In this document: piece after piece, positions 5,448-59,040 of the stretch
How the letters are laid out: each line of letters begins with the position of its first letter
How positions within the stretch are numbered: position 1 is the stretch's first letter
DNA from: Somniosus microcephalus
Lineage: Eukaryota
Length of the DNA stretch: 64,000 bases
Direction of reading: 5' to 3'
Assembly: GCA_052327205.1 (NCBI GenBank)
Contig: CM126207.1
Coordinates: 82,522,001 to 82,586,000 of the forward strand
Made by a program: the position numbers and the translations under genes
The notes under the pieces: generated by a model
Database searches by the model: none
Told to the model about the DNA's origin: nothing
What the model saw: the letters and a program-made list of their open reading frames with translations, nothing else

Positions 5448-5779
5448 TGGAGTCACCCAAAGGTGATTTGCATCAGAAAAGATGATTGTAGTGAAGCAAT
5501 GAACATTGTTAATAAGTGGTTTTTCATGGTTTCATGATTTTTAAGAAATTAAATAAAATTCATAGATAGCTTCCCAAGTTCATAGATGCAAAACTCTCAA
5601 AGCATTTCCCTGCATCTCACTACAAATCTCTCATGGTTGTTCAGGAATACAAATCACACATTTCCAGATGTAGCAGCTATGTTGAGATTATAAATGTACT
5701 GTTTTGACGGAATGAAAATATTTTTCCATGTAAGATGTTAAGAAAAACACTTCAAAGTGTACTATATATTCTGTTTCAG

Positions 5780-5917
5780 AATGATTTGGATAAATTTTCC
5801 AAAGGAATTGGCAGATTTACGCGAGAGGATCCCACTTTCAGGGTTACTTATGATCCTGAGAGCAGAGAGACAATTGTATCCGGAATGGGAGAATTACACT
5901 TAGAAATTTATGCACAG
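5780..5917 (+). CDS. GFM1: GFM1 coding exon ([20 protein letters not shown]...[12 protein letters not shown])
   Basis: EF-G domain III motifs EDPTF and GMGELHL; cag/gtattt; 138 nt. Confidence 0.97.
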
Positions 5918-5997
5918 GTATTTAACCGATTGTAACTTAATTTTATTTTTATGGTTTGAATTTTGGTGTAGTTCATTAAGTGTTTGGTGAACATTAG

Positions 5998-18193: not shown

Positions 18194-20349
18194 GGCCGGA
18201 ATTTTCTGTGCCTGGGCGGGTCGGATGCGGGTGGTCACCATGGCGTGTCACAACCCCGTTCTTCATACCATGCCACTCCTGAGATCGACTTTGTTGATGA
18301 CCCCTATTAAGGTCGCCCTGCGCGTTTCCTGACCCTATTAAAAGTTCAGGTCTGATGACTTCATCGATGACACGTTTTCAGCCGGGATATTTAAAGGCGC
18401 CATGACCATATTGCATTTGAAGGCTCATCCAGGAGTGTGCAGGCTGCACACTGCACAATTGGACTACTGCAAAAAGTGCACCGAAACAGAGGGCTGCACC
18501 CAGGTTCTCAGATGATTCCCTCCATATTCTTGTGAAGGGAGTGAGAACACATAGGAAGGTCCTCTTCCCTTCTAATGGGCAGAAGAGACCTCCCCAGGAG
18601 ACAAAACGAGCCTGGCTCCAAATAGCAGAGGAGGTCAACAGCAGGGATGTGGTCAGGAGGACCTGGCTGCCGTGCCGGAAACGTTTCAATGATCTCACTA
18701 GATCAGGAAAGGTGAGTGCAAAACCATACTCAACTTCATCCTGCTGCGCCTCACATCACATTCCCATCACTCTGCTTTCCCAACCCTGTTCCTGCACATC
18801 CTTACTCATACCTTGCACGTCCACCCATCCTCTCTATCTACATTATCACACCCCCATCTGACTAGCCACCCCTCACACTCACCCTCATCCTAATGCAATC
18901 ATACCAACTAACAAAACACAAGGAGGCCACTTGGCATTGGCACCCCATTCCATCATAGTCACCCTCTAAAGATGTAACCCATCCATTCCTTACACTCATT
19001 CCATCACTCTCACTCAACCTTCTCTTCATTCCCTCCTTGCAGGAAAAGAGAGCCCACAATGAGAGGGAGAGAACCGGAGGTGGCACTCCATCATTGGCCA
19101 CCCTACCATCAGCAGAGGAGGCTGCCTTGGAAGTGTCTGGAGGTGGGAGATGGAGAGAGGGGGACATCTCAGCAACCTGGTGACAGAATTACATATCATA
19201 CAGCGACATGGCATGCAGCAGTCACTCATATGGAGACTGAAGGCAGCAGCCAGTGAATGTTCATCATGTGCATTGTGGTATCTGTACCCATTCTTCATAT
19301 AACATATCTAATTCATCCCACAGGTTCATCAAGAGCCCCCCCCCCCCCCCCCCCACTGTCCAGGAGGAAGAAAAAGACGACCCCTCAGAACAGCGTCCAG
19401 CCTCTGAAGGCGCACCGTCACCAGACATAAACACCCAGCACCAGCACAGATACTTACACATTGGTGAGTCCCACGTGAGAGAAGAGTAGTGTTGTCACCT
19501 GGTGTCTCACAAGTCACAAGTGAGCAAGAGTAGCTGGTGGAGACGGGGACAGCAGTGGAGACTCCTTCCTGGAGGGCGCAGGATTCTCCCAGCTCTGCTC
19601 AACTGCATGCAGACGCTGAGCCTCTGGGACCATCCAGAAAAAGGACGTTACCGGAGGTGCAGCAAGAAGTGCAGGAGGCTTTGACAGGTTTTGCGACTGC
19701 AATGTCTACAAATGTCCAGAGAATGGAGGAGTCCATCTCCAACATGAGCACCACTGTGTTGCAGGCGGTGGCGACTGTAGGCTCTTCCATGGATAGGATG
19801 GCTACCTGCATGGAGCAGCTAATGCGCCACTCATAGGAGCACATGGCCTCTATGGAGAATAGATGGATTAGGCTCATAGATGTCCTCTCTAGGAGGGATG
19901 TTGATGTCAAAGTGGATCCTCGTGGCCCTACTGCTGTGCAGCAAGGTGCTCTCTAACTCCTTGCTAGCAGGGAAGTGCAGGTGGCCCATGAGAGGGATGA
20001 TGGTGAGCGGGGACATGGAAGTGGGGGCTCCTCTCAGGCTCACACTTCTCCCCCGTTGCCCGGTTGACACAGACTCCTGGGTGATGATGAAGTGTCCTGG
20101 TGCATGCAGGAATCCGGCACTTCCATCGGGCCTACGGGTGAGTACCCCGTGCGTACTCACCCGTGGAGACCCGAATTTCTGGGCCAATAATTTAAATTAG
20201 CTCGCCCACCTCTGCCGTTCGGGTCGCTGCCGCGCAGGCAAACACACCCGAGAGAAAGGCGCATGGGGGCGGGATGACGACAAGTTCCTGACCCGCTGCA
20301 AGATATTTCAAATTTTCCGTGCGTGCACGAACTCCAGAAAATTCCGGCC
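18194..20349 (+). mobile_element. Non-autonomous PIF/Harbinger transposon carrying only the Myb/SANT gene
   Basis: Perfect 15-bp TIR GGCCGGAATTTTCTG; TAC TSD; internal Myb/SANT exons. Confidence 0.9.
18460..20030 (+). pseudogene. Harbinger Myb/SANT-like gene, three exons (~18460-18711, 19043-19179, 19324-), frameshifted
   Basis: APRFSD..L..LV..V, AW..IAEEVN, R.W..CRKRFNDL, EKRAHN..ERTGGG; gtgagt donor and ttgcag acceptor. Confidence 0.8.
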
Positions 20350-22771: not shown

Positions 22772-22777
22772 TTTATT
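22772..22777 (-). promoter_or_regulatory. Candidate polyadenylation signal of the nested gene
   Basis: AATAAA on the minus strand ~290 nt after the stop, followed by a T/GT-rich tract. Confidence 0.55.
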
Positions 22778-23064
22778 AATAGATAGCAGTGCCACTTTCA
22801 CTGATGGAACAAATTGTTGAGATTATCAGTGGTTTTATTAATCTGACATTAAGGTAGTTCACTGGCTTGAGTGCGGCTTCAGTCTCGTGTACCATTTAAA
22901 TATGTTTTTTATGGCAGTAGTGGAAAATATAATTGGAAAATTTTAAGACAACATTTGAAGCAGCAGTGTTGCATTCATTGTTAGCTGCAAGTTTCAGTTA
23001 ACTTATGTGCTACAAGTACATTGGGAAATATAAATGTGACTAGTCCTATATGGGTGGTTAGCAC

Positions 23065-23532
23065 TCAGTTCATGGAAAAACCTTCCATAGCTGACCCTTC
23101 AACTGTTTCAAATGCTGATCCTTCAAGTCTTTCAGATTCTGATTCTTTGTATCTTCCAAATCCTGATCCTTCGAGTCTTCCAAATTCTGATTCTTCACGT
23201 CTTCCAAATCCTGATCCTTCGAGTCTTCCAAATTCTGATTCTTCACGTCTTCCAAATCCTGATCCTTCGAGTCTTCCAAATTCTGATTCTTCACGTCTTC
23301 CAAATCCTGATCCTTCGAGTCTTCCAAATTCTGATTCTTCACGTCTTCCAAATCCTGATCCTTCGAGTCTTCCAAATTCTGACTCTTCACGTCTTCCAAA
23401 TCCTGATCCTTCGAGTCTTCCAAATTCTGACTCTTTAGAAAAACTTTCCCATGGAGGAGGCAAGCAAAAGTATTTCACAGTCACTGATTGTTGGGGGTTC
23501 CACATCACCCACATATGGCAAGTGATTATTTC
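23065..23532 (-). CDS. Nested latexin/RARRES1-family gene, exon 6 (EIITCHMWVMWNPQ...KYFC + repeat tail)
   Basis: aacag acceptor; EII-C-W-P-VKY-C matches the RARRES1 last exon; open for 155 aa to TGA; spliced CDS totals 1131 nt. Confidence 0.9.
   Translation of the reverse strand, partial: EIITCHMWVMWNPQQSVTVKYFCLPPPWESFSKESEFGRLEGSGFGRREESEFGRLEGSGFGRREESEFGRLEGSGFGRREESEFGRLEGSGFGRREESEFGRLEGSGFGRREESEFGRLEGSGFGRYKESESERLEGSAFETVEGSAMEGFSMN
23146..23433 (-). repeat. Coding 48-bp tandem repeat x6 (two 24-bp subunits), plus degenerate copies down to ~23075
   Basis: tcttccaaatcctgatccttcgagtcttccaaattctgattcttcacg unit repeated almost perfectly. Confidence 0.97.
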
Positions 23533-23658
23533 CTGTTTAGGGCAGAAAAAAATAGCATTACTTGCCAGAACATGTAATTGATGTGCTGGCACTGATCATT
23601 GTGAAAGGGATTGGAATAGTCTCTAGATATAATCAGTTTATTTCTTTGATTAATTTAC

Positions 23659-23721
23659 CTGGGTTGGCAACTCGTGGAGAAGAACTGTATAGGTAAATTG
23701 AAGAAATTTGTCTGCCCTTAC
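23659..23721 (-). CDS. Nested latexin/RARRES1-family gene, exon 5 (VRADKFLQFTYTVLLHELPTQ)
   Basis: ttccag/gtaaat; 63 nt; YTVLLHE.xTQ motif. Confidence 0.92.
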
Positions 23722-23817: not shown

Positions 23818-23954
23818 CCATTGATTAACTTTCTGTATTTGAGCCATGTCATACTTGAAGATTTCAGTGGATTTTTCCCACATGATGTAGCTGGCACTAA
23901 CTTTTGCCAGGTGCCAGATTGGCATCATTTTAGGGTCTACAAATCCAAAATTAT
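23818..23954 (-). CDS. Nested latexin/RARRES1-family gene, exon 4 (DNFGFVDPKMMPIWHLA...YIMWEKST...KVNQW)
   Basis: ctcag/gtaaga; 137 nt; completes the IPDNFG inhibitory-loop motif. Confidence 0.92.
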
Positions 23955-24101: not shown

Positions 24102-24273
24102 CCGGAATATTGTAGCCAACCATGGGGTTCCTCTGCTTTTTCAAATTGAGGTAAAATTTATTATCTTTCTTGAAGCTGTCTTTCTTAAGGTCTTTCAGAT
24201 TGCACTTTAGAGTTGTGTCTGGATTTTTTTTCTTGTTGTGGAAGAGTACATTAGCTATACAGATGCCAGTACC
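24102..24273 (-). CDS. Nested latexin/RARRES1-family gene, exon 3 (GTGICIANVLF...DNKFYLNLKKQRNPMVGYNIP)
   Basis: cacag/gtatga; 172 nt, phase 1; DNxFY..LK..P...NIP pattern of the family. Confidence 0.9.
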
Positions 24274-24479
24274 CTGTGGTGAGAAACAGTTATTATAATT
24301 TTGAGTTTAGTTCTTTGAATATTACTTGCATCCTGTTTATTCATTCAAGACAAGGGTAACTGGTCATTTTAGTTTAGCTACTTATATTTAAATGGACAAT
24401 GAAAGATACTGTAACTCTGTCACTTAATTCTCTGTTGCCAAAAATACATTATCAAAAGCAGAAGATATAAAAGACAGAA

Positions 24480-25159
24480 GGCCTAGAAATTGGGTTGAGG
24501 CGCCAAGTTCGCCTGAGCGCAGGATTTAGTGCAGCGTCCGAGTCTTCAGCGATCGTCCGATATTCAGTTTCATTGCCCCCTAGAGGGAGACGGGGCGAGG
24601 CTCGAGGCGCTCCGCGTCCCTCTTAGGGCGCTGAAACTGAATATCGCAGTGCAACGTGCCGCAGCGCCACACGCTGCGGCACGGCACGCTGCGGTACTGC
24701 AGGCCTTCCTCCCATTGTTAAGGGGGAGGGGCCTGCAACAGCGCGATCCCCGATCGCGAATGCCGGCAAAAGAGCCTGGCACCGAGGAGAAGTGCCGGGC
24801 TCTCGGGGTAACAGCCGGCAATGCCGCGGGGGGGGGGGGGCGGTCAGGAGGCCGGGGACGGAGGTGCTGGCAGGCGGCCGCCCCGCACCTCCACCTTAAC
24901 TTGTGCCGCTGCCGGCACAGTAAGGCCCCGTGAACCGGGCGCGGGTAGCGAACGGCGCAACTGCGGCGTTCGCAACTAAATATCGTGAATGGGGCGCTGC
25001 GCACACCAATGACGTCATCGGTGGCGGCGCAGCGCAAAAGGCTAACGCCACCATTATCGCCCCAAATCAGTATCGCGGGAGGCGCAGCCAGTGGCGCTAC
25101 AGCCACTGCCTGCCTCTTTAGGTGCTAACAAGTGGCGCTACTCACCCAATTTCTCCCCC
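24480..25159. mobile_element. GC-rich Harbinger-type MITE, family A, in intron 2 of the nested gene
   Basis: TIR core AGAAATTGGGT/ACCCAATTTCT; internal similarity to 5998-6694. Confidence 0.8.
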
Positions 25160-25238
25160 AGAAGAGTTTAGTTGTGGGTTGTTTTGGACAGTGAATGTTG
25201 CTTATAAGACATGACCCTGTTATCACTATTCTACTTAC

Positions 25239-25307
25239 ATTTGAAGAGCTTTCTTCATTTTTCACTTCAAATTCAAGGTGGTACTTGTGTCCTATATTTG
25301 AAGTCAC
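25239..25307 (-). CDS. Nested latexin/RARRES1-family gene, exon 2 (VTSNIGHKYHLEFEVKNEESSSN)
   Basis: tctctctccag acceptor, gtaagt donor; 69 nt; GHKYHLxF matches latexin. Confidence 0.9.
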
Positions 25308-27090: not shown

Positions 27091-27091
<1 letters not shown>

Positions 27092-27312
27092 TCAGTAAAG
27101 ACTTTCTTCAGCTTATGTAGTCCATAAACTGTGTTTGGGGATCCATAACGATAGTTTAAATAATGGACAGCCACACTTGCGGCTTGTTGAGCAAGACGAT
27201 CTTCTGTAGGAATTTCAACAGCAGTAACTGTAAGGTCTAAACGATTTGCTGTTTTTGGCATTCCATACAGTAATGGTAGGAAACAAACAACGAAGCATAG
27301 AATTGAGTACAT
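27091..27312 (-). CDS. Nested latexin/RARRES1-family gene, exon 1 (signal peptide + start of first cystatin-like domain)
   Basis: ATG in aaacATG context; MYSILCFVVCFLPLLYG hydrophobic leader; EIP...AASVAVHYLNYRYGSP resembles latexin N-terminus; gag|gtaaga donor. Confidence 0.9.
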
Positions 27313-44780: not shown

Positions 44781-46238
44781 TCACCTTCTGCTTCGTCTTT
44801 TTCTTTTCTGCTTCTTGGAGACTCTCGGGGCTCCCTTATCAGCTGCCAGCTGTAGCGCCACCATCTCCCTATGTTCCTTAGACTTTAAGTGCTTCATCCT
44901 GATTTCTGCACTTTGGGAGTTTTCATCACAAGCTGGGCAGACCAAGTCCTCGTAATATTCTGTGTCACTCAACAGGTCATGGTAATATTCGGTGTCGTCC
45001 TGAACTAGTCTAGCGAGAGGGCCTGCTACTTCTTCCTTACCCAACTGGACGTTAGCCGACTGTTGTTCCCTCCCTAGACATCTTTCCTGAAGAGACTTCT
45101 TCATGCGTTCATATTCATCCCGCTCTTCCTGGGTTTCCTGCAAATCTTTCACTAATGACCTCATTTGTGATTTCAATACTTCCCCTTCCATCGGGGATTG
45201 ATTGATCGGGCTATTCAATCCTTCTACTGGAGCAGCTGTTTCAACATTCTGTTGTTCACATAGACGTGATTCAGCGTACTTTTGGGATCCCAGTAAAATC
45301 TGTGTTGCAACCTCAGCTATTTCCATAACTTTTGAGAGCTCCGAACTCCTTCCCTTTGAAGATTGAAGCTCGTGTTCAGATTGTTCCCATTGCAGAGTCT
45401 TGTCCCTCAGCATATGAAGGAGTTGGCTGACCGTTAACTCCTCCACGGGAACACTGTGGATCAGCGTCTTCTCCATTTCATCCACCTTTTCCTCCAATGC
45501 TTTCACCTTCTTTTCCTCTTGTACTTTGGCTTTCAGCGCTCTGAGAAGTTGCGCCTTGATGCTCTCTAGCTCATGTTCAGGGGCCATTCTTACAGTCTCT
45601 GTGTTTCTTACAGTTTCCTTTTCTTCCACTGAAAGGATTCCCAGTTGAATCTGTTCTTCAAGTTGTTGAACCTCGGTCATTGCCGCCTCATATTTGTCTT
45701 GGGTTTCCTTCAATATTTTTATGAGTTCTTGGACATCTTGTCTTTCATGTTCTGCCATGTCTTTCACCTCTAATTTCTCATCTATGGATGGAACTTCTAC
45801 CGATGAGTCTGTCTTGGCCTTGAGCTCATCAAGAATTTCCTGCAGCCTTTGGACTTCTTGCTCATGTTCAACCTTTAGTTGCTCATATGCTTCTACTGAA
45901 ACTAGCTTTTTGGAGGTTGCTGAGTTAATCCCCTCCAGGATTGTAGCCTGGGCCTGTTCATACTGTTCCTTCAACTTCTCAAACTCTGCTTGTAAGGAGT
46001 CGTAGAGAAGAACGGGAATAAAATCCTGGCTTCCTGAAGATTCCTCTTCATTTGCTCCTTCCTGCAAATATTCTAACTCCTGAACAGCATAAGGGAGATG
46101 TGATCGGTAATTGGTCACAATGGCTCTATGGTCGCTCTCTGCTTGAGCTAGCTGCTTCTGTTGTCTTTCCAGATTCTCCCATTCGGTGTCATAGAACTTT
46201 TTCATTGTTTTCATCTCTTGTTCGAGACGGTAACTCAC
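44781..46238 (-). CDS. 485-aa chimeric cargo ORF: ANKRD24/RAI14-like coiled coil + optineurin-like coiled coil + DNAJC21-like zinc finger and basic tail
   Basis: Uninterrupted ORF where pol should be; no RT/RH/INT motifs; recalled matches YRSHLxYAVQ, IPxxLYDSLxAEF, EELTVSQLL, MKKxLQExC, DLxCPACD...HREMVAL. Confidence 0.8.
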   Translation of the reverse strand: MSYRLEQEMKTMKKFYDTEWENLERQQKQLAQAESDHRAIVTNYRSHLPYAVQELEYLQEGANEEESSGSQDFIPVLLYDSLQAEFEKLKEQYEQAQATILEGINSATSKKLVSVEAYEQLKVEHEQEVQRLQEILDELKAKTDSSVEVPSIDEKLEVKDMAEHERQDVQELIKILKETQDKYEAAMTEVQQLEEQIQLGILSVEEKETVRNTETVRMAPEHELESIKAQLLRALKAKVQEEKKVKALEEKVDEMEKTLIHSVPVEELTVSQLLHMLRDKTLQWEQSEHELQSSKGRSSELSKVMEIAEVATQILLGSQKYAESRLCEQQNVETAAPVEGLNSPINQSPMEGEVLKSQMRSLVKDLQETQEERDEYERMKKSLQERCLGREQQSANVQLGKEEVAGPLARLVQDDTEYYHDLLSDTEYYEDLVCPACDENSQSAEIRMKHLKSKEHREMVALQLAADKGAPRVSKKQKRKRRSRR

Positions 46239-46253
46239 TTGTTCTACTTGCTG

Positions 46254-47159
46254 TCATAATTTGAAATAAAGTTGAGTCCGAGCTCGGTGTTCGTCAGTCA
46301 TGGATATGTCCGTAAACTGAACAGACTCAGAATTCTCTGTCAAACTATGTTGTCGTTGTTCGGTGGAGTTCTGTTCTGAAACTTTGTTCTTCTCTGGAGC
46401 ATAAGCCTTTATGCATGCCTTCGTTCTTCCAACCTTAGTCGGCAAGTCCATTTTAGCCTTGTCTTTCATATTTGGGTTGGTCTTATCGGCATCCGTTTCA
46501 GAATCTGAGCTGATTGTCTGCACCGAGTCCTCACTCGTTATGGCTTTTAGATAGTGCCATTCCATGTCTATTTTCTTGATCCACTCCCATCCCAGAAGTG
46601 GTGGTCCTCCCTCAGGTAGTACGTATAAGTTCATTCTTGGGTGTTCTTTACCCCCATCTCTCACCTTGACTCTTATCTTCCCCATGGGGTATACGTTATG
46701 CCCCGTGTATGTCTGCAATACGAACTTGGTATCTCTTAAGGGTATATGTGAGAATAGCCGGTGGTAATCCCTTCGATTTATGACTGATAGAGCTGATCCA
46801 GTGTCCAACTCCATTTTCACTTGGACTCCAGCTATTTTTAGCATGACCCAGATAGTTTGTAGGTCAGCTTCCTTACTCACATTGTGAATTCTCAGACTGC
46901 CCAGCTCCTGGCCGTTTGGGTCTGAGTCCGAATTCTGTTCGTCTGAACTCTTCTCAGCCACCTTGTGTACCTTGTTGTACTTTCCCTGTGATGGCTTCCT
47001 TTGGTTGTTGGTCTTCTTCCCTGACCGGCATACCTTAGCTATGTGACCCAGTTTGCCACATTTCCTACATTCCTGGTTCTTAAACCAGCATTGGTTTTGG
47101 TCGTGTGTTGTCTTCCCACAACGATAGCATTTTGTTGTACTCGAGGTAATTTGATCCAC
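46254..47159 (-). CDS. Gag zinc knuckles + aspartic protease + linker
   Basis: Two CCHC knuckles (CYRCGKTTHDQNQC, CRKCGKLGHIAKVC); LDTGSA catalytic motif; LLGWEW. Confidence 0.92.
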   Translation of the reverse strand: MDQITSSTTKCYRCGKTTHDQNQCWFKNQECRKCGKLGHIAKVCRSGKKTNNQRKPSQGKYNKVHKVAEKSSDEQNSDSDPNGQELGSLRIHNVSKEADLQTIWVMLKIAGVQVKMELDTGSALSVINRRDYHRLFSHIPLRDTKFVLQTYTGHNVYPMGKIRVKVRDGGKEHPRMNLYVLPEGGPPLLGWEWIKKIDMEWHYLKAITSEDSVQTISSDSETDADKTNPNMKDKAKMDLPTKVGRTKACIKAYAPEKNKVSEQNSTEQRQHSLTENSESVQFTDISMTDEHRARTQLYFKL

Positions 47160-47686
47160 ACTGAGTGCCGCTGCATTTCCGCAGTTCCCTTCGCTGCGGC
47201 TTCGTGCGATGCTGCAATAAGGACAGCCCTGTCAAGTGTAAGGTCGTTCTCTTCGAGTAGTCGCTTTTGCGTTCCTTCCTTTGACAACCCGCACACGAAC
47301 TTGTCTCGCAATGCCTCTGTCAGATTCCCTCCAAACTGGCAGTGTTTCGCTAGTCTATGCAGTTCGACCAAGTATTCTGCGTTGCTTTCGTCTTTCCTTT
47401 GCGTTCTCGCATAGAATTTGAATCGTTCCGCCAACATCAACGGTGTGGGGTTCAAGTGATCCTTCAGAACAGTCACAATATCATCGAAAGTCTGATCCGC
47501 CGGTTTAGCTGGTGCTAGTAGATGCTTCAAGAGCCCGTATGTCTTCGCGCCCATCGAGTTTAGCAAGGTTATAGCTTTGTCATCTTCTATTTTATTGGCC
47601 TCACAATAGATCTCAATGCGTTCCACATACGTGGCCCAGTCTTCTACCTCGGAATTAAAATCGTTGATGTTACCACGCTTAGGCAT
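47160..47686 (-). CDS. gag: Gag capsid region
   Basis: W..Y.ER....EAN, AERFKF..R.Q, LRDKFVCGL motifs of Mag-type Gypsy gag; frameshift near 47160. Confidence 0.9.
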
Positions 47687-48739
47687 CTTCCTCTCTTCCT
47701 GATAACACCACGAATTATTTCTTTAAATTTTCTTTTATTTATTAATTAATTTTTTCCAAGATGGCGGTTCCCGCGAAAATGGCGGTTTCCCGCGCTTATC
47801 TTCTCTCCCCGCCCACTTCAATGGCGGTTTCCCGCTTCTGTCTTCTTCCCCGCCTAATGGCGGCTTCCCGCGTTTCTTCCCTAGCGGGAGGGGTACACTT
47901 TCCCCACGGGCGACGGCCGCTGGCTTTCAGGTTCACAGCCTGTGCGTCGGCTTCAGGGCTTTCCCTTTTCTCGGCAGGGCAACCGGCACTGGGTACACCC
48001 CGTTGATGGCGAACAGTTTCAGCCGCTGGGCTGGCTCTCGCTCAGTTCCCCTTGCTCGGGCTCTGTCTCTCTCCCGCTCGCTCGGCTCTACCGGCGCTGG
48101 GTACACCCCGTTGACGGAGAACAGTTTCAGCCGCTGGACTGGCTCTCGCTCAGTTCCCCCTTGGTTGGCTCTGCCTCTCCCACTCACTCGGCTCCCAATC
48201 GCGCCTCCCAGCCCTCTCGCAGTCCGGTGCTTCCCTCCCCGGCTGCGGCTGAGTTTATCTCTTCCCGCGCCTACGCTCCCGGTCGCAGCGCTTCGTGGCT
48301 TCAGTCGCTGCCCGGCCTTTTTCGCCGGTCGCGGTCTAGCTGTCTCACAACGCCGTTGCGTCCCCCAGCCTGTCTGTACCGCGGCTTCCTTGCTCCACGC
48401 TGCCCCAGTCTCAGCGCCTCTGGACCCGACTTCTGTCCGGCTCCTTTCCCCCTCGACCGTGGTCGAGTGCACCGCCCTTATCCTCCGGTTATTCTTTTTA
48501 CTTTCCCTTACTCACAGTCACCGTGGCCGCCTTGCTTCTCGTGCTGATCGGCTCACTCCTCACCGTGGCAGAAGGGACAGTCAGTGCCTGTTGCTGATGG
48601 AAGTCTTTGTCTCTAACTTCTTCTTCCTTTCTAGTTCTGCAACCTCGAGTTTTCTCCCAGCAGAACGACGAGGGCGGTTGCCTCTTCTCGACGCTCGTTA
48701 ACTGCTTCGGAAGTATTGTTGCCGCAGGGTACGATCGGA

Positions 48740-50770: not shown

Positions 50771-51362
50771 CAGGTAGACTATCCTTTATCCGAAAACCTC
50801 GGGACCAGCCGAGTTTCGGATAAAGGAGAATTTCGGATTTCGGAAGGTGGGTCGGCGGGGGTCCGCGGGGGTCCGCGGGGGGGGGGGTCGGCGGGGGGTC
50901 GTGCGCACAACTTACGCTGACGCTCAGCGTAAGTCAGTCGGGGCGGGGGGGATCGGCGGTTGTCGGGGCCGGCGGGATCGGCGGTTGTCGGGGCTGGCGG
51001 GGTCGGCGGTTGTCGGGGCTGGCGGGGTCCCCGGGGGGGTCGGCGGTTGTCGGGGCTGGCGGGGTCGGCGGTTGTCGGGGCGGGGGGGTCGGCGGTTGTC
51101 GGGGCTGGCGGGGTCGGCGGTTGTCGGGGCCGGCGGGGGGGTCGGGGCTGTCTGGGCTGGCGGGGTCGGTGGTTGTCGGGGCCAGCGGGGGGTCGTGCGC
51201 ACAACTTACCCTTTATCCGAACTTCCGAAACCGGAACCCTCTAAAAACCGAAGGTTTTTTCGTTCAGCGTAAGTCGTACGCACGACTTACACTGAACGAA
51301 AAAACCTTCGGTTTTTAGAGGGTTTCGGTTTTCGGAAGTCCGGATAAAGGGTAGTCTACCTG
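50771..51362. mobile_element. Same Tc1/mariner MITE family, with GC minisatellite and palindrome
   Basis: Same TIR; TA TSD; inserted in a CR1 endonuclease region. Confidence 0.9.
50940..51195. repeat. GC-rich minisatellite (ggtcggcggttgtcggggc(t/c)ggcgg)n
   Basis: About ten variant ~22-26 bp units. Confidence 0.9.
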
Positions 51363-56377: not shown

Positions 56378-57100
56378 CCTCTGAGGGAGCAGCGTCAGCA
56401 GAAATGAGCGCACCCAGCACCAGCGTAGAGACGCACACCTCGGTGGAGCTAAGAAACAACAAATAAAAACAGTAGAGAGAAAGGATCTTGGCTCGGAAAT
56501 ACAAAATGTAGAATCAGCTTGGGTGGAGCTAAGAAATAACAAGGGACAGAAAACACTAGTGGGTGTTGTCTCTCGGCCCCCTAACAGTGGCTGTCGTGCG
56601 AGATAGAGTAGTATTGTCACCTGGTGTATCACAATGCACAAGTGAGCAAGAGCAGATGGTGTAGACAGGGACAGCAGTGGAGAGTCCTCGTCAGAGGCCG
56701 CAGAGTGCTCCTAGCTCTGCTCAGCTACATGTAGACGCTGAGCTTCGGGGGCCATCCAGAAAGAGAGCTGGAGTTTCAGGAACATGTGCAGAAAATGGAG
56801 GCGTCCGTCTCAAACATGAGTAATGCCTTGGTGCACGCAATGGCGAATGTAGGTTCTGCCATGGAAAGGATGGCAACCTCCATGAAGGGCATAAATTGCC
56901 AAACTCAAATAAACATGGTGACTCTTCTAAATAGATGGTCAGCTATGGAGGATAGATGGGCATGTATAATGGAGAGGAACCAGAGGTCCATGGACGTCCC
57001 TGTTATGAGGACTGTCAGTACAGAGACGGGTCCACATGGCCCCACTGATGTGCAGCAAAGTACTCTCCAGCTACTTGCCAGCAGAGAAGTGCGGGTGGCC
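56378..57100 (+). mobile_element. Fragment of a related Harbinger Myb/SANT exon 3, interrupted by a CR1 piece (~56443-56590)
   Basis: Aligns by eye to 19400-19990 (QKMEASVSNMS vs QRMEESISNMS). Confidence 0.75.
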
Positions 57101-59040
57101 CATGATTTCCCTTTCATAAACCTGTGTTGACTCTATCCAAACCTATTATTTTCTAAGTGCCCTGTTACCACGTACTTAATAAAAGATTCTAGCATTTTCC
57201 CTACTACTGATGTCAGGCTAACTGGTCTGTAGTTCCCTGTTTTCTCTCTAACTCCTTTCTTAAATAGTGGGGTTACATTTGCTACCTTCCAATCCCCGGA
57301 AAAAGATCTAAAATCTATGGAACTTTGGAAGATGACAACCTCTGCATCCACTATCTCTATAGCCACCTCTTTCAAACCCCTAGGATGTAGCCCATCAGGT
57401 CCAGGGGATTTATTGGCTTTCAGTCACATTAATTTCTCTAGTACTATTTTTTTTACTAATACTAATTTCTTTCAGTTCCTCATTTTCACTAGACCATTGG
57501 TTCTCCAGTATTTCCAGGAGGTTTTTTGCATCTTCTTCCGTGAAGACAGATGCAAAGTATTTGTTTAATTTCTCTGCCATTTCCTTATTCCCCATTATAA
57601 TTTCTCCTGTCTCAGCCTGTAAGGGACCCACATTTACTTTTGCTAACCTTTTCCTTTTTAAATACCTATAGAAGCTTTTACAGTCTGTTTTTATGTCTCT
57701 TGTTAGTTTACTCTCATATTCTGTTTTCCCTTTCTTTATCAATTTCTTGGTCCTCCTTTGCTGAATTCTAAAACCCTCCCAATCCTTAGGCTTACTACTC
57801 TTGGTGAAAATTATAAGCCTCTTCCTTAATCTAATACTATCTTTAATTTATCTTGGTAACACGGTTGGACCATTTTTCCTGTGGTGTTTTTATTCCTTAG
57901 GGGAATGTATATTCGTTGTGAATGATGAATTATTTCTTTAAATGTTTGCCATTGCTTTTCTACTGTCATATCTTTTAATCTAGTTTCCGAACCTACCTTA
58001 GCCAACTCGCCTCTCATACCTATGTAGTTTGCTTTGTTTAGGTTTAGGACCCTAGTTTCGGACTTAACTAAATCACGCTCAAAAATTCTATCATATTATG
58101 ATCACTGCTCCCCAGTGGCTCCTTTACTACAAGGTTATTAATTAATCCTGTCTCATTGCACAGTACTAGATCTAAAATCGCCAATTCCCTCATAGGTTCC
58201 TTGACATACTGATCTAGGAAAAACTATCTTGAATACATTCCATGAACTCTTCCTCTGCACTATTTCTGCAAATTTGGTTTGCCCAGTCGATATGAAAGTT
58301 AAAGTCCGCCCATGATTACTATATTACCCTTGCTACATGCATCTCTTAATTTCCTGACTTATACTGTGCCTGACACTACAACCACTGTTAGGGGGCCGAT
58401 AGTCAACACCCACTAGTGTTTTCTGCCCGTTGTTGTTTCTTAGCTCCACCCAAGCTGATTCTACATTTTGTATTTCCGAGCCAAGATCCTCTCTCTCTAC
58501 TGTCTTTATTTCCTCCTTTATTATCAGGGCTACCCCTCCTCATTTTCCATTCTGTCTGTCTCTTCTAAAAGGCAAATATCCTGGAATATTTAGTTCCCAA
58601 CCTTGGTCACTCTGCAACCACGTCTCTCTAATGGCTGTTAAATCAAATCTATTAATTTCTATCTGCGCTATTAATTCATCTAATTTTTTGCGAATGCTTC
58701 ATGCATTCAGAAATAGCACCTTTAGCTTTAACTTTTTCCTATTTTTCCCTGATGTCACTTTAGTTACTATTACCTTTATTAATCTTTCTGTCCTTTCCTG
58801 ACCCACTCTGCTTATCTTTACCCAGATCACTACTCTGCTCTACAGCCTTGACATTTCTCTTACTGCTTTTGAATTTACCCTTTCCTGAATCCTCCACCCA
58901 CCCTTCATTAGTTTAAAGCCCTGTCTACTGCCCTAGTTATTTGATTCGCCATGACGCTGGTCCCAGCCCGGTTTAAGTGGAACCCGTCCCCACGGAACAG
59001 CTCCCTTTTTCCCCAGTACTGGTGCCAGTGCCCCATGAAT
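57100..59040 (-). mobile_element. CR1 LINE ORF2 fragment
   Basis: WKVANVTPLFKKG, NYRPVSLTS, LNKYFASVFT. Confidence 0.9.

Follow-up and report, generated by a model that had tools for sequence, protein, structure and literature searches.

In mammals, the latexin gene (LXN) lies antisense in an intron of GFM1. Its product, a carboxypeptidase A4 inhibitor (PDB 2bo9, 1wnh), comprises 222 aa in humans and has no N-terminal extension. RARRES1/TIG1 and ovocalyxin-32 (OCX-32; PF06907) have been placed in the I47 latexin family (PMC9363672), and OCX-32 inhibits bovine carboxypeptidase (PMC8144736). Latexin has been dated to gnathostomes and TIG1 to tetrapods (PMC2784779). Human RARRES1 is a chondroitin sulfate (CS) proteoglycan with its chain at the N-terminal Ser40 (PMC8418075; PMC10424144); its secreted form measures 80–160 kDa against about 40 kDa for the cell-bound form, a shift that the authors compare to heparan sulfate (PMC3430302). 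Chicken OCX-32 is a 32-kDa phosphoprotein (Ser261, Ser268) and is not described as a proteoglycan (PMC9363672).

Two arrangements outside this family are analogous. Bikunin joins a protease inhibitor to one CS chain at EEEGSG, thus pairing an inhibitor domain with a glycosaminoglycan (GAG) site on an unrelated fold; no homology is claimed. The CS-repeat region of aggrecan and serglycin are repeated Ser-Gly cores, which provide many GAG sites by tandem repeats, as proposed below for the shark tail, again on unrelated folds.

The window analysed here is a 64,000-nt stretch of the Somniosus microcephalus genome (contig CM126207.1, positions 82,522,001–82,586,000). It holds a minus-strand gene of six exons with GT-AG borders, encoding a 376-aa latexin-family product (Table 1). 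The gene lies antisense within a GFM1 intron, since plus-strand EF-G exons flank it on both sides (domain 2 at ~1.8 kb, domain III at 5777–5926, domain IV at ~30.2 kb and the C-terminal part at ~33.6 kb). RARRES1 is drawn flanking GFM1 (PMC8144736).

Membership in the latexin family, proposed in the first-pass annotation from the letters alone, was confirmed by profile search. Exons 3–4 matched Pfam LXN (PF06907) with 125.8 bits (E = 2.4e-36) against a cut-off of 24.1, and exon 1 with E = 4.7e-7; the match at the start of exon 6 was weak (E = 1.1e-4, 22.3 bits) and under the cut-off. Core cysteines stand at 102, 121, 226 and 244. The protein has a single N-glycan sequon, and the net charge of its 132-residue tail is −11. 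Judged from N-terminal hydropathy (2.4–3.5 in the first nine-residue windows of exon 1), it is likely secreted; NCBI calls the chimaera orthologue 'latexin precursor'. Genome searches with PF06907 and family proteins found no second LXN/RARRES1 locus among the best candidates, which alone were scored, a divergent paralogue being possible. On the window, tblastn of eight family proteins returned no family locus beyond the exon 1–6 gene.

Table 1. Features of the latexin-family gene and its host gene in the window.
Feature	Position	Strand	Evidence or content
Exon 1, coding part	27091–27312	−	ATG, signal-peptide-like hydrophobic N-terminus (~residues 1–17), start of cystatin domain 1
Exon 2	25239–25307	−	Joint 24272–25238 in X1 and X2
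Exon 3, with Cys102 and Cys121	24102–24273	−	Joint in X1 and X2, four junction letters listed as differing
Exon 4	23818–23954	−	Pfam LXN match and contig joints
Exon 5, encoding the H-E-x-P-T-Q loop with its conserved His and Gln	23659–23721	−	Contig joints
5' section of exon 6, completing cystatin domain 2 (Cys226, Cys244), and linker	23434–23532	−	Joint 23531–23658 in X1 and X2
Coding tandem array, 6 x 48 nt	23146–23433	−	TRF, translation, 48-nt go-back reads
Last part of the tail, with two acidic EGSA motifs (Ser360, Ser368), the C-terminus conserved in sharks and the stop codon	23065–23145	−	
Likely 3' UTR	22772–23064	−	AATAAA at 22839 and 22777
GFM1 (mitochondrial EF-G) host-gene exons	1688–33879	+	Flank the latexin gene on the opposite strand

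Elsewhere in the window, a 490-codon stop-free frame (44784–46253, minus strand) directly follows retrotransposon gag, zinc-knuckle and protease frames (46257–47722, minus strand). A weak PKK (SLK-type) match at its start is followed by coiled coil and, at its end, by a C2H2-like finger; the frame may represent host exons captured by an LTR-type element, or it may belong to a neighbouring gene. The frame at 18421–18858 (plus strand) encodes a Myb/SANT-like DNA-binding domain (PF13873, E = 1.9e-11), probably from a Harbinger-type transposon. By eye, the frame at 19534–19833 resembles that at 56735–57127, and frames in much of the remaining window resemble fragments of LINE reverse transcriptase. 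GC-rich tandem arrays with 10- and 25-nt units occupy 50849–51192.

Two sequencing runs, X1 and X2, whose RNA status is presumed, yielded contigs without introns; small differences suggest that they derive from related organisms. Contigs of both runs skip exactly introns 2–5 and join exons 2–6 as predicted. At one end they run on into exon 1, where a loose end after 25309 agrees with the end of that exon; at their other end they reach the first repeat. Other contigs exit the repeat into 23096–23125, their loose ends agreeing with the tail-end part. The first-pass annotation had considered that transcripts might splice or end before the repeat; the contigs enter it, and none of those from X1 or X2 has a joint leaving exon 6 ahead of it. 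Because the mapped stretch covered just 1.5 of the six repeat units, no single molecule was seen to span the whole array. Summed contig depth over the repeat, which is not a copy number, was ~2,784 versus 411 in X1 and 2,279 versus 543 in X2.

The raw RNA run X15 contains 16 reads that go back 48 nt (four starts), with first mates on the plus strand, and run X16 contains three repeat go-back reads in the opposite direction. Exons 2–5 have zero reads in both. Given this lack of depth and the opposed directions, neither an expression level nor a tissue is drawn from these repeat reads.

Intron 2 carries a GC-rich insert (24450–25165) that contains internal inverted repeats and to which RNA reads of other copies cross-map heavily. 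Since 24477–25162 is skipped in one X2 contig, the element seems absent from the X2 organism.

An AlphaFold model was made for the sawshark (Pristiophorus) orthologue from a 76-row alignment. Its pLDDT was 91–98 over residues 31–240 and 47–59 in the tail after residue 250. The model matched human latexin (2bo9_B) with E = 1.3e-21, an rmsd of 1.7 and a TM score of 0.93 by target length, and the sequence match to the latexin structure had E = 1.1e-43. As modelled, the head consists of two tandem cystatin domains in the latexin fold, and the sawshark tail is predicted to be disordered. The loop His and Gln, which we take to be the enzyme contacts, are each conserved in 69 of the 76 aligned rows.

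The repeat is part of the coding sequence. The canonical acceptor at 23533, the last conserved Cys (23466–23464) and the array share one continuous frame, and the six 48-nt units read ESEFGRLEGSGFGR(RE/YK), in agreement with the first-pass annotation, TRF and the spliced contigs. TRF gave a period of 48 with 6.8 copies, 96% matches and a score of 584, and also a period of 24 with 14.2 copies. The array is followed by 26 codons that hold both of the EGSA motifs noticed earlier, then by TGA at 23067–23065. In all, the tail counts 12 FGR, 5 GRR, 6 EGSG and 2 EGSA. Each unit joins one ESEFGR border-type octamer to one EGSG octamer, so that Ser-Gly (residues 264, 280, 296, 312, 328 and 344 in the array) is absent from half of the window octamers. 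That the tail truly belongs to a latexin-family protein, as first supposed, is supported by the Pfam LXN matches, the spliced contigs and the tails of orthologues; the last two rule out both a non-coding minisatellite and read-through past a splice site. A Pfam Prion_octapep match on the tail (23.8 bits, cut-off 32) was dismissed as a resemblance between Gly-rich octamers.

The orthologues are already known as proteins and stand in NCBI as 'latexin': the elasmobranch models XP_067851494.1 (Heptranchias), XP_078065115.1 (Mustelus) and UniRef UPI00398F49BD (Pristiophorus), and NP_001279868.1 of a chimaera, share the N-terminus, the four cysteines and the octamer tail, on which the database names are silent. 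The 16-residue dimer unit with GRR, however, occurs only in Somniosus microcephalus among elasmobranch orthologues. The window protein is 86% identical to that of the sawshark over 253 columns, and the two are sister rows in the tree (99/91).

The octamer R-x-E-G-S-G-x-x forms the tail in all seven other sharks first compared, with 5–18 [ED][GA]SG sites each. Over eight sharks including the window, its position frequencies are R 0.99, variable, E 0.87, G 0.77, S 0.93, G 0.79, S/F/L and E/G. Cluster members added later (two bamboo sharks and a second catshark) are consistent with this pattern. Tails measure 76–228 aa in sharks and 21–57 aa in batoids; sharks conserve both the frame and an EGSAM-x-G-[FL] C-terminus, and tail length equals 4 mod 8 in six of the seven complete shark tails and likewise in the chimaera. 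SG is absent from all five batoid tails compared, which are short: EGTG is the repeated motif in Pristis, and little of the tail is retained in Mobula, Hypanus and the skates. In the bamboo shark Chiloscyllium plagiosum, two NCBI isoform models differ by 56 residues (seven octamers) within the tail, through splicing in the repeat or a mapping artefact.

Several squalomorphs and batoids, including some whose Ser-Gly repeats are missing, retain a single ESE[F/L]GR at the border between head and tail (23433–23416, minus strand, in the window), which could be a cut site freeing the inhibitor domain. The window 16-mer combines this border octamer, single in Heptranchias, Pristis and two skates, with one EGSG octamer. 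The two were re-amplified together, which makes the density of FGR and the GRR sites of the window specific to its lineage.

Changes were also counted by parsimony at each octamer position over 10 chondrichthyan unit consensuses, using one consensus per species, the EGSG half as the window unit and a species tree that we assumed from general knowledge, and ignoring codon structure. The counts were 1, 5, 0, 0, 1, 0, 3 and 2. EGSG is the conserved core of the repeat, carrying 1 of the 12 changes (rough binomial p = 0.003), and change is concentrated elsewhere in the octamer.

RARRES1 and OCX-32 share with the shark protein the hydrophobic N-terminus, the four cysteines (CCCC) and an acidic Ser-Gly plus EGSA/ESGSA motif at the C-terminus. 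They differ in having one motif pair instead of 5–18 copies, a C-terminal Phe and, in humans, a proven CS site at the N-terminal Ser40. LXN resembles the shark gene in fold, His/Gln loop and antisense position in the GFM1 intron, but LXN-type rows have neither the second pair of cysteines nor an acidic Ser-Gly tail. The shark gene combines a RARRES1-type architecture with an LXN-type genomic position.

Among 108 bony-vertebrate RARRES1/OCX-32 proteins, mostly from birds, the 104 with the anchor motif were counted and the four without it left out. SG was present in 101 tails, [ED][GATV]SG in 93, GSA in 93 and a terminal Phe in 95; FGR occurred in none. [ED][GA]SG appeared 92 times in 2,991 tail residues and never in the 21,986 residues that make up the rest of these proteins, which, being mostly from birds, are not independent. 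Mammalian and squamate representatives carry the same Ser-Gly/EGSA pair; hedgehog and hagfish rows are without it. The earlier remark that no such tail was known in LXN or RARRES1 holds for LXN-type rows, which lack it together with the second Cys pair, but not for RARRES1/OCX-32, where it exists as a single copy, the repeated form being shark-wide.

Most bony tails end in Phe, often as N-F, and shark tails end in Asn; for a carboxypeptidase inhibitor, conservation of an aromatic C-terminus may be relevant to substrate-like binding. LXN-type proteins of sturgeon, gar and gecko retain a hydrophobic signal-like N-terminus, so latexin may have lost its signal peptide late in its history.

In a 23-row tree with tails removed and a long hagfish outgroup, bony LXN and RARRES1 were joined (94/92, unstarred) and chondrichthyans fell outside. 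Alternative placements were not rejected (shark with RARRES1, p-AU = 0.09; shark with LXN, p-AU = 0.12). The shark gene is probably a single latexin-family gene in the form preceding the duplication into LXN and RARRES1/OCX-32, and the published dating of the two fits a single shark gene (PMC2784779). Sequence comparison indicates that its tail expanded by whole-octamer slippage from an ancestral EGSG...EGSA pair, of which one copy is still found in chimaera, coelacanth, amphibians, reptiles, birds and mammals. Amplification from a RARRES1-type C-terminal motif, as the first-pass annotation had suggested, is upheld by the chimaera tail, where one EGSG and two EGSA octamers stand in register with those of sharks.

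On these comparisons, the candidate reading that we hold slightly better than even is that the disordered tail arose by multiplication of an ancestral GAG-attachment motif and makes the protein a secreted inhibitor-proteoglycan. The protein would enter the secretory path, Golgi xylosyltransferase would prime Ser-Gly and possibly Ser-Ala sites of the tail, and chondroitin/dermatan sulfate would be added by default. The product would be a bikunin-like inhibitor-proteoglycan with several possible chains, their number set by the number of repeats; the chains would retain the head, an A/B-type carboxypeptidase inhibitor, in matrix, mucus or granules and would make it larger and more highly charged.

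XT1 needs Ser followed by Gly/Ala in an extended peptide. It is permissive about the remaining sequence, generally preferring acidic surroundings, and its activity on a Thr acceptor is ~7% of that on Ser (PMC5992326). CS is the default GAG chain (PMC10570366). EEEGSG of bikunin, DEASG of decorin and EGSA of chromogranin A and CD23 are among the validated human CS motifs, and the local pI of 26 such motifs ranges from 3.3 to 6.8 (PMC10424144); motifs alone are ambiguous predictors of GAG sites (PMC8418075). Most shark sites (~4.8) and the single-copy sites (4.1–4.5) lie within this range. In the window, 6 SG and 2 EGSA occupy a putatively secreted segment that the sawshark model predicts to be unstructured. 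All six of its EGSG sites are basic at −5 to +5 (pI 11.7, net +2) and fall outside the validated range, the sawshark median being 9.6, and its two EGSA sites are net acidic by inspection. In Somniosus microcephalus the two acidic EGSA sites would be the best candidates, with the six EGSG sites perhaps only partly used.

The GAG-site reading is favoured by the survival of EGSG, the retention of the motif in bony tails, the predicted disorder, the pI fit and the RARRES1 precedent; it is weakened by the basic EGSG contexts of the window and by rays and skates without Ser-Gly. The Ser-Gly alternative offered in the first-pass annotation gains from the conservation of EGSG across sharks and from acidic Ser-Gly in 93 of the 104 bony tails. 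All four RARRES1 rows of a urine dataset are the N-terminal peptide and none is the homologous C-terminal motif (PMC10424144). RARRES1 is unmentioned in the main text of PMC9526814, PMC13038410 and PMC5227003, and nothing was found in the literature searched on RARRES1 CS glycopeptides or xylosylation glycoproteomics. That literature likewise yielded no description of a tail or C-terminal GAG site in the latexin family, and the papers it listed for latexin together with sharks were unrelated; most subscription journals lie outside it, and unseen glycoproteomic supplements may list one.

The main rival, possible though rather unlikely, is a weakly constrained coding minisatellite: a tolerated disordered spacer that expands by slippage, with function in one ancestral motif or in none. 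The wide swings in tail length among sharks and batoids, the seven-octamer gap between the two bamboo shark models, the loss of Ser-Gly in batoids and the many degenerate units are all expected of such a spacer, and the position-1 Arg is conserved as much as EGSG, which common descent from one unit could explain. Less expected are the conserved frame and EGSAM-x-G-[FL] end, the 4 mod 8 lengths and the concentration of changes outside EGSG.

A phospho-serine tail binding mineral or calcium, as suggested for the eggshell protein OCX-32, perhaps in tessellated cartilage or egg case, appears improbable. S-x-E/D, the Fam20C consensus, occurs only 0–2 times per shark tail and once in the window, and phosphorylation leaves the fixed Gly after Ser unexplained, even though the window tail has a net charge of −11. 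The homologous tail of OCX-32 is phosphorylated at Ser261 and Ser268 (PMC9363672).

The lead reading of the first-pass annotation, a multi-copy peptide precursor in which cleavage by convertases at R/RR would be followed by trimming by carboxypeptidase E and amidation of the F-G ends by PAM, is now decidedly doubtful. It accounts for the 12 FGR and 5 GRR of the window and the 6 FGR of its sister row, the sawshark, for an Arg every eight residues in nearly all shark units (0.99), which fits the monobasic convertase-site rule, and for the single border G-R retained in Heptranchias, Pristis, Mobula, Hypanus, Amblyraja and Rhinoraja (the last with GRR and GRK). The conservation expected of these signals nevertheless failed to appear. 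Gly plus dibasic sites flanking repeated peptides are confined to the window among the sharks compared (GRR-type sites in 0/7 other shark tails), and repeated FGR is found in 1/7 (six in sawshark, one each in Heptranchias and Scyliorhinus, none in four others) and in 0/104 bony tails. Fragments ending in Gly plus a basic residue number 0 or 1 in five of the seven other sharks, with seven in sawshark and five, of a different peptide, in Stegostoma. The amide-forming positions 7–8 take 5 of the 12 parsimony changes, and unit sequences vary between species, whereas receptor-ligand peptides typically have conserved C-termini. EESEF-amide would moreover require single-Arg cleavage, dibasic-only cleavage giving a 13-residue product. 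Several prohormones are also CS proteoglycans (PMC8418075), so the peptide and GAG readings can coexist.

A narrower form of the peptide idea, to which we give little credence, would be that a GAG-site repeat was converted to a processed one in the window and sawshark lineage, leaving an inhibitor head and several identical amidated peptides, possibly still glycosylated. Ser-Glu would have become Phe-Gly before the fixed Arg, GRR would have arisen in Somniosus microcephalus, and cutting at GRR only would release four copies of a 13-residue Phe-amide. If true, a peptide hormone or defence precursor would have been born from a proteoglycan tail.

Finally, a bait or substrate-like tail for carboxypeptidases, also raised in the first-pass annotation, is very unlikely: although the head has the latexin fold, A-type carboxypeptidases favour a C-terminal Phe and 95 of 104 bony tails end in one, the free C-terminus of shark tails is Asn, and the internal Arg and Phe are out of reach of an exopeptidase unless the tail is cleaved first.

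The shark repeat serves as a natural amplifier that points to a C-terminal motif pair of RARRES1/OCX-32 older than the chimaera–shark split. Should it carry no glycan, it would be a coding repeat, well conserved, in a gene that is already annotated. Were the motif a GAG site, the ancestral latexin would be a secreted inhibitor-proteoglycan and LXN a derived, stripped form. Mammalian RARRES1 would then have a second site, absent from the datasets examined, which could help to account for its 80–160 kDa secreted form.
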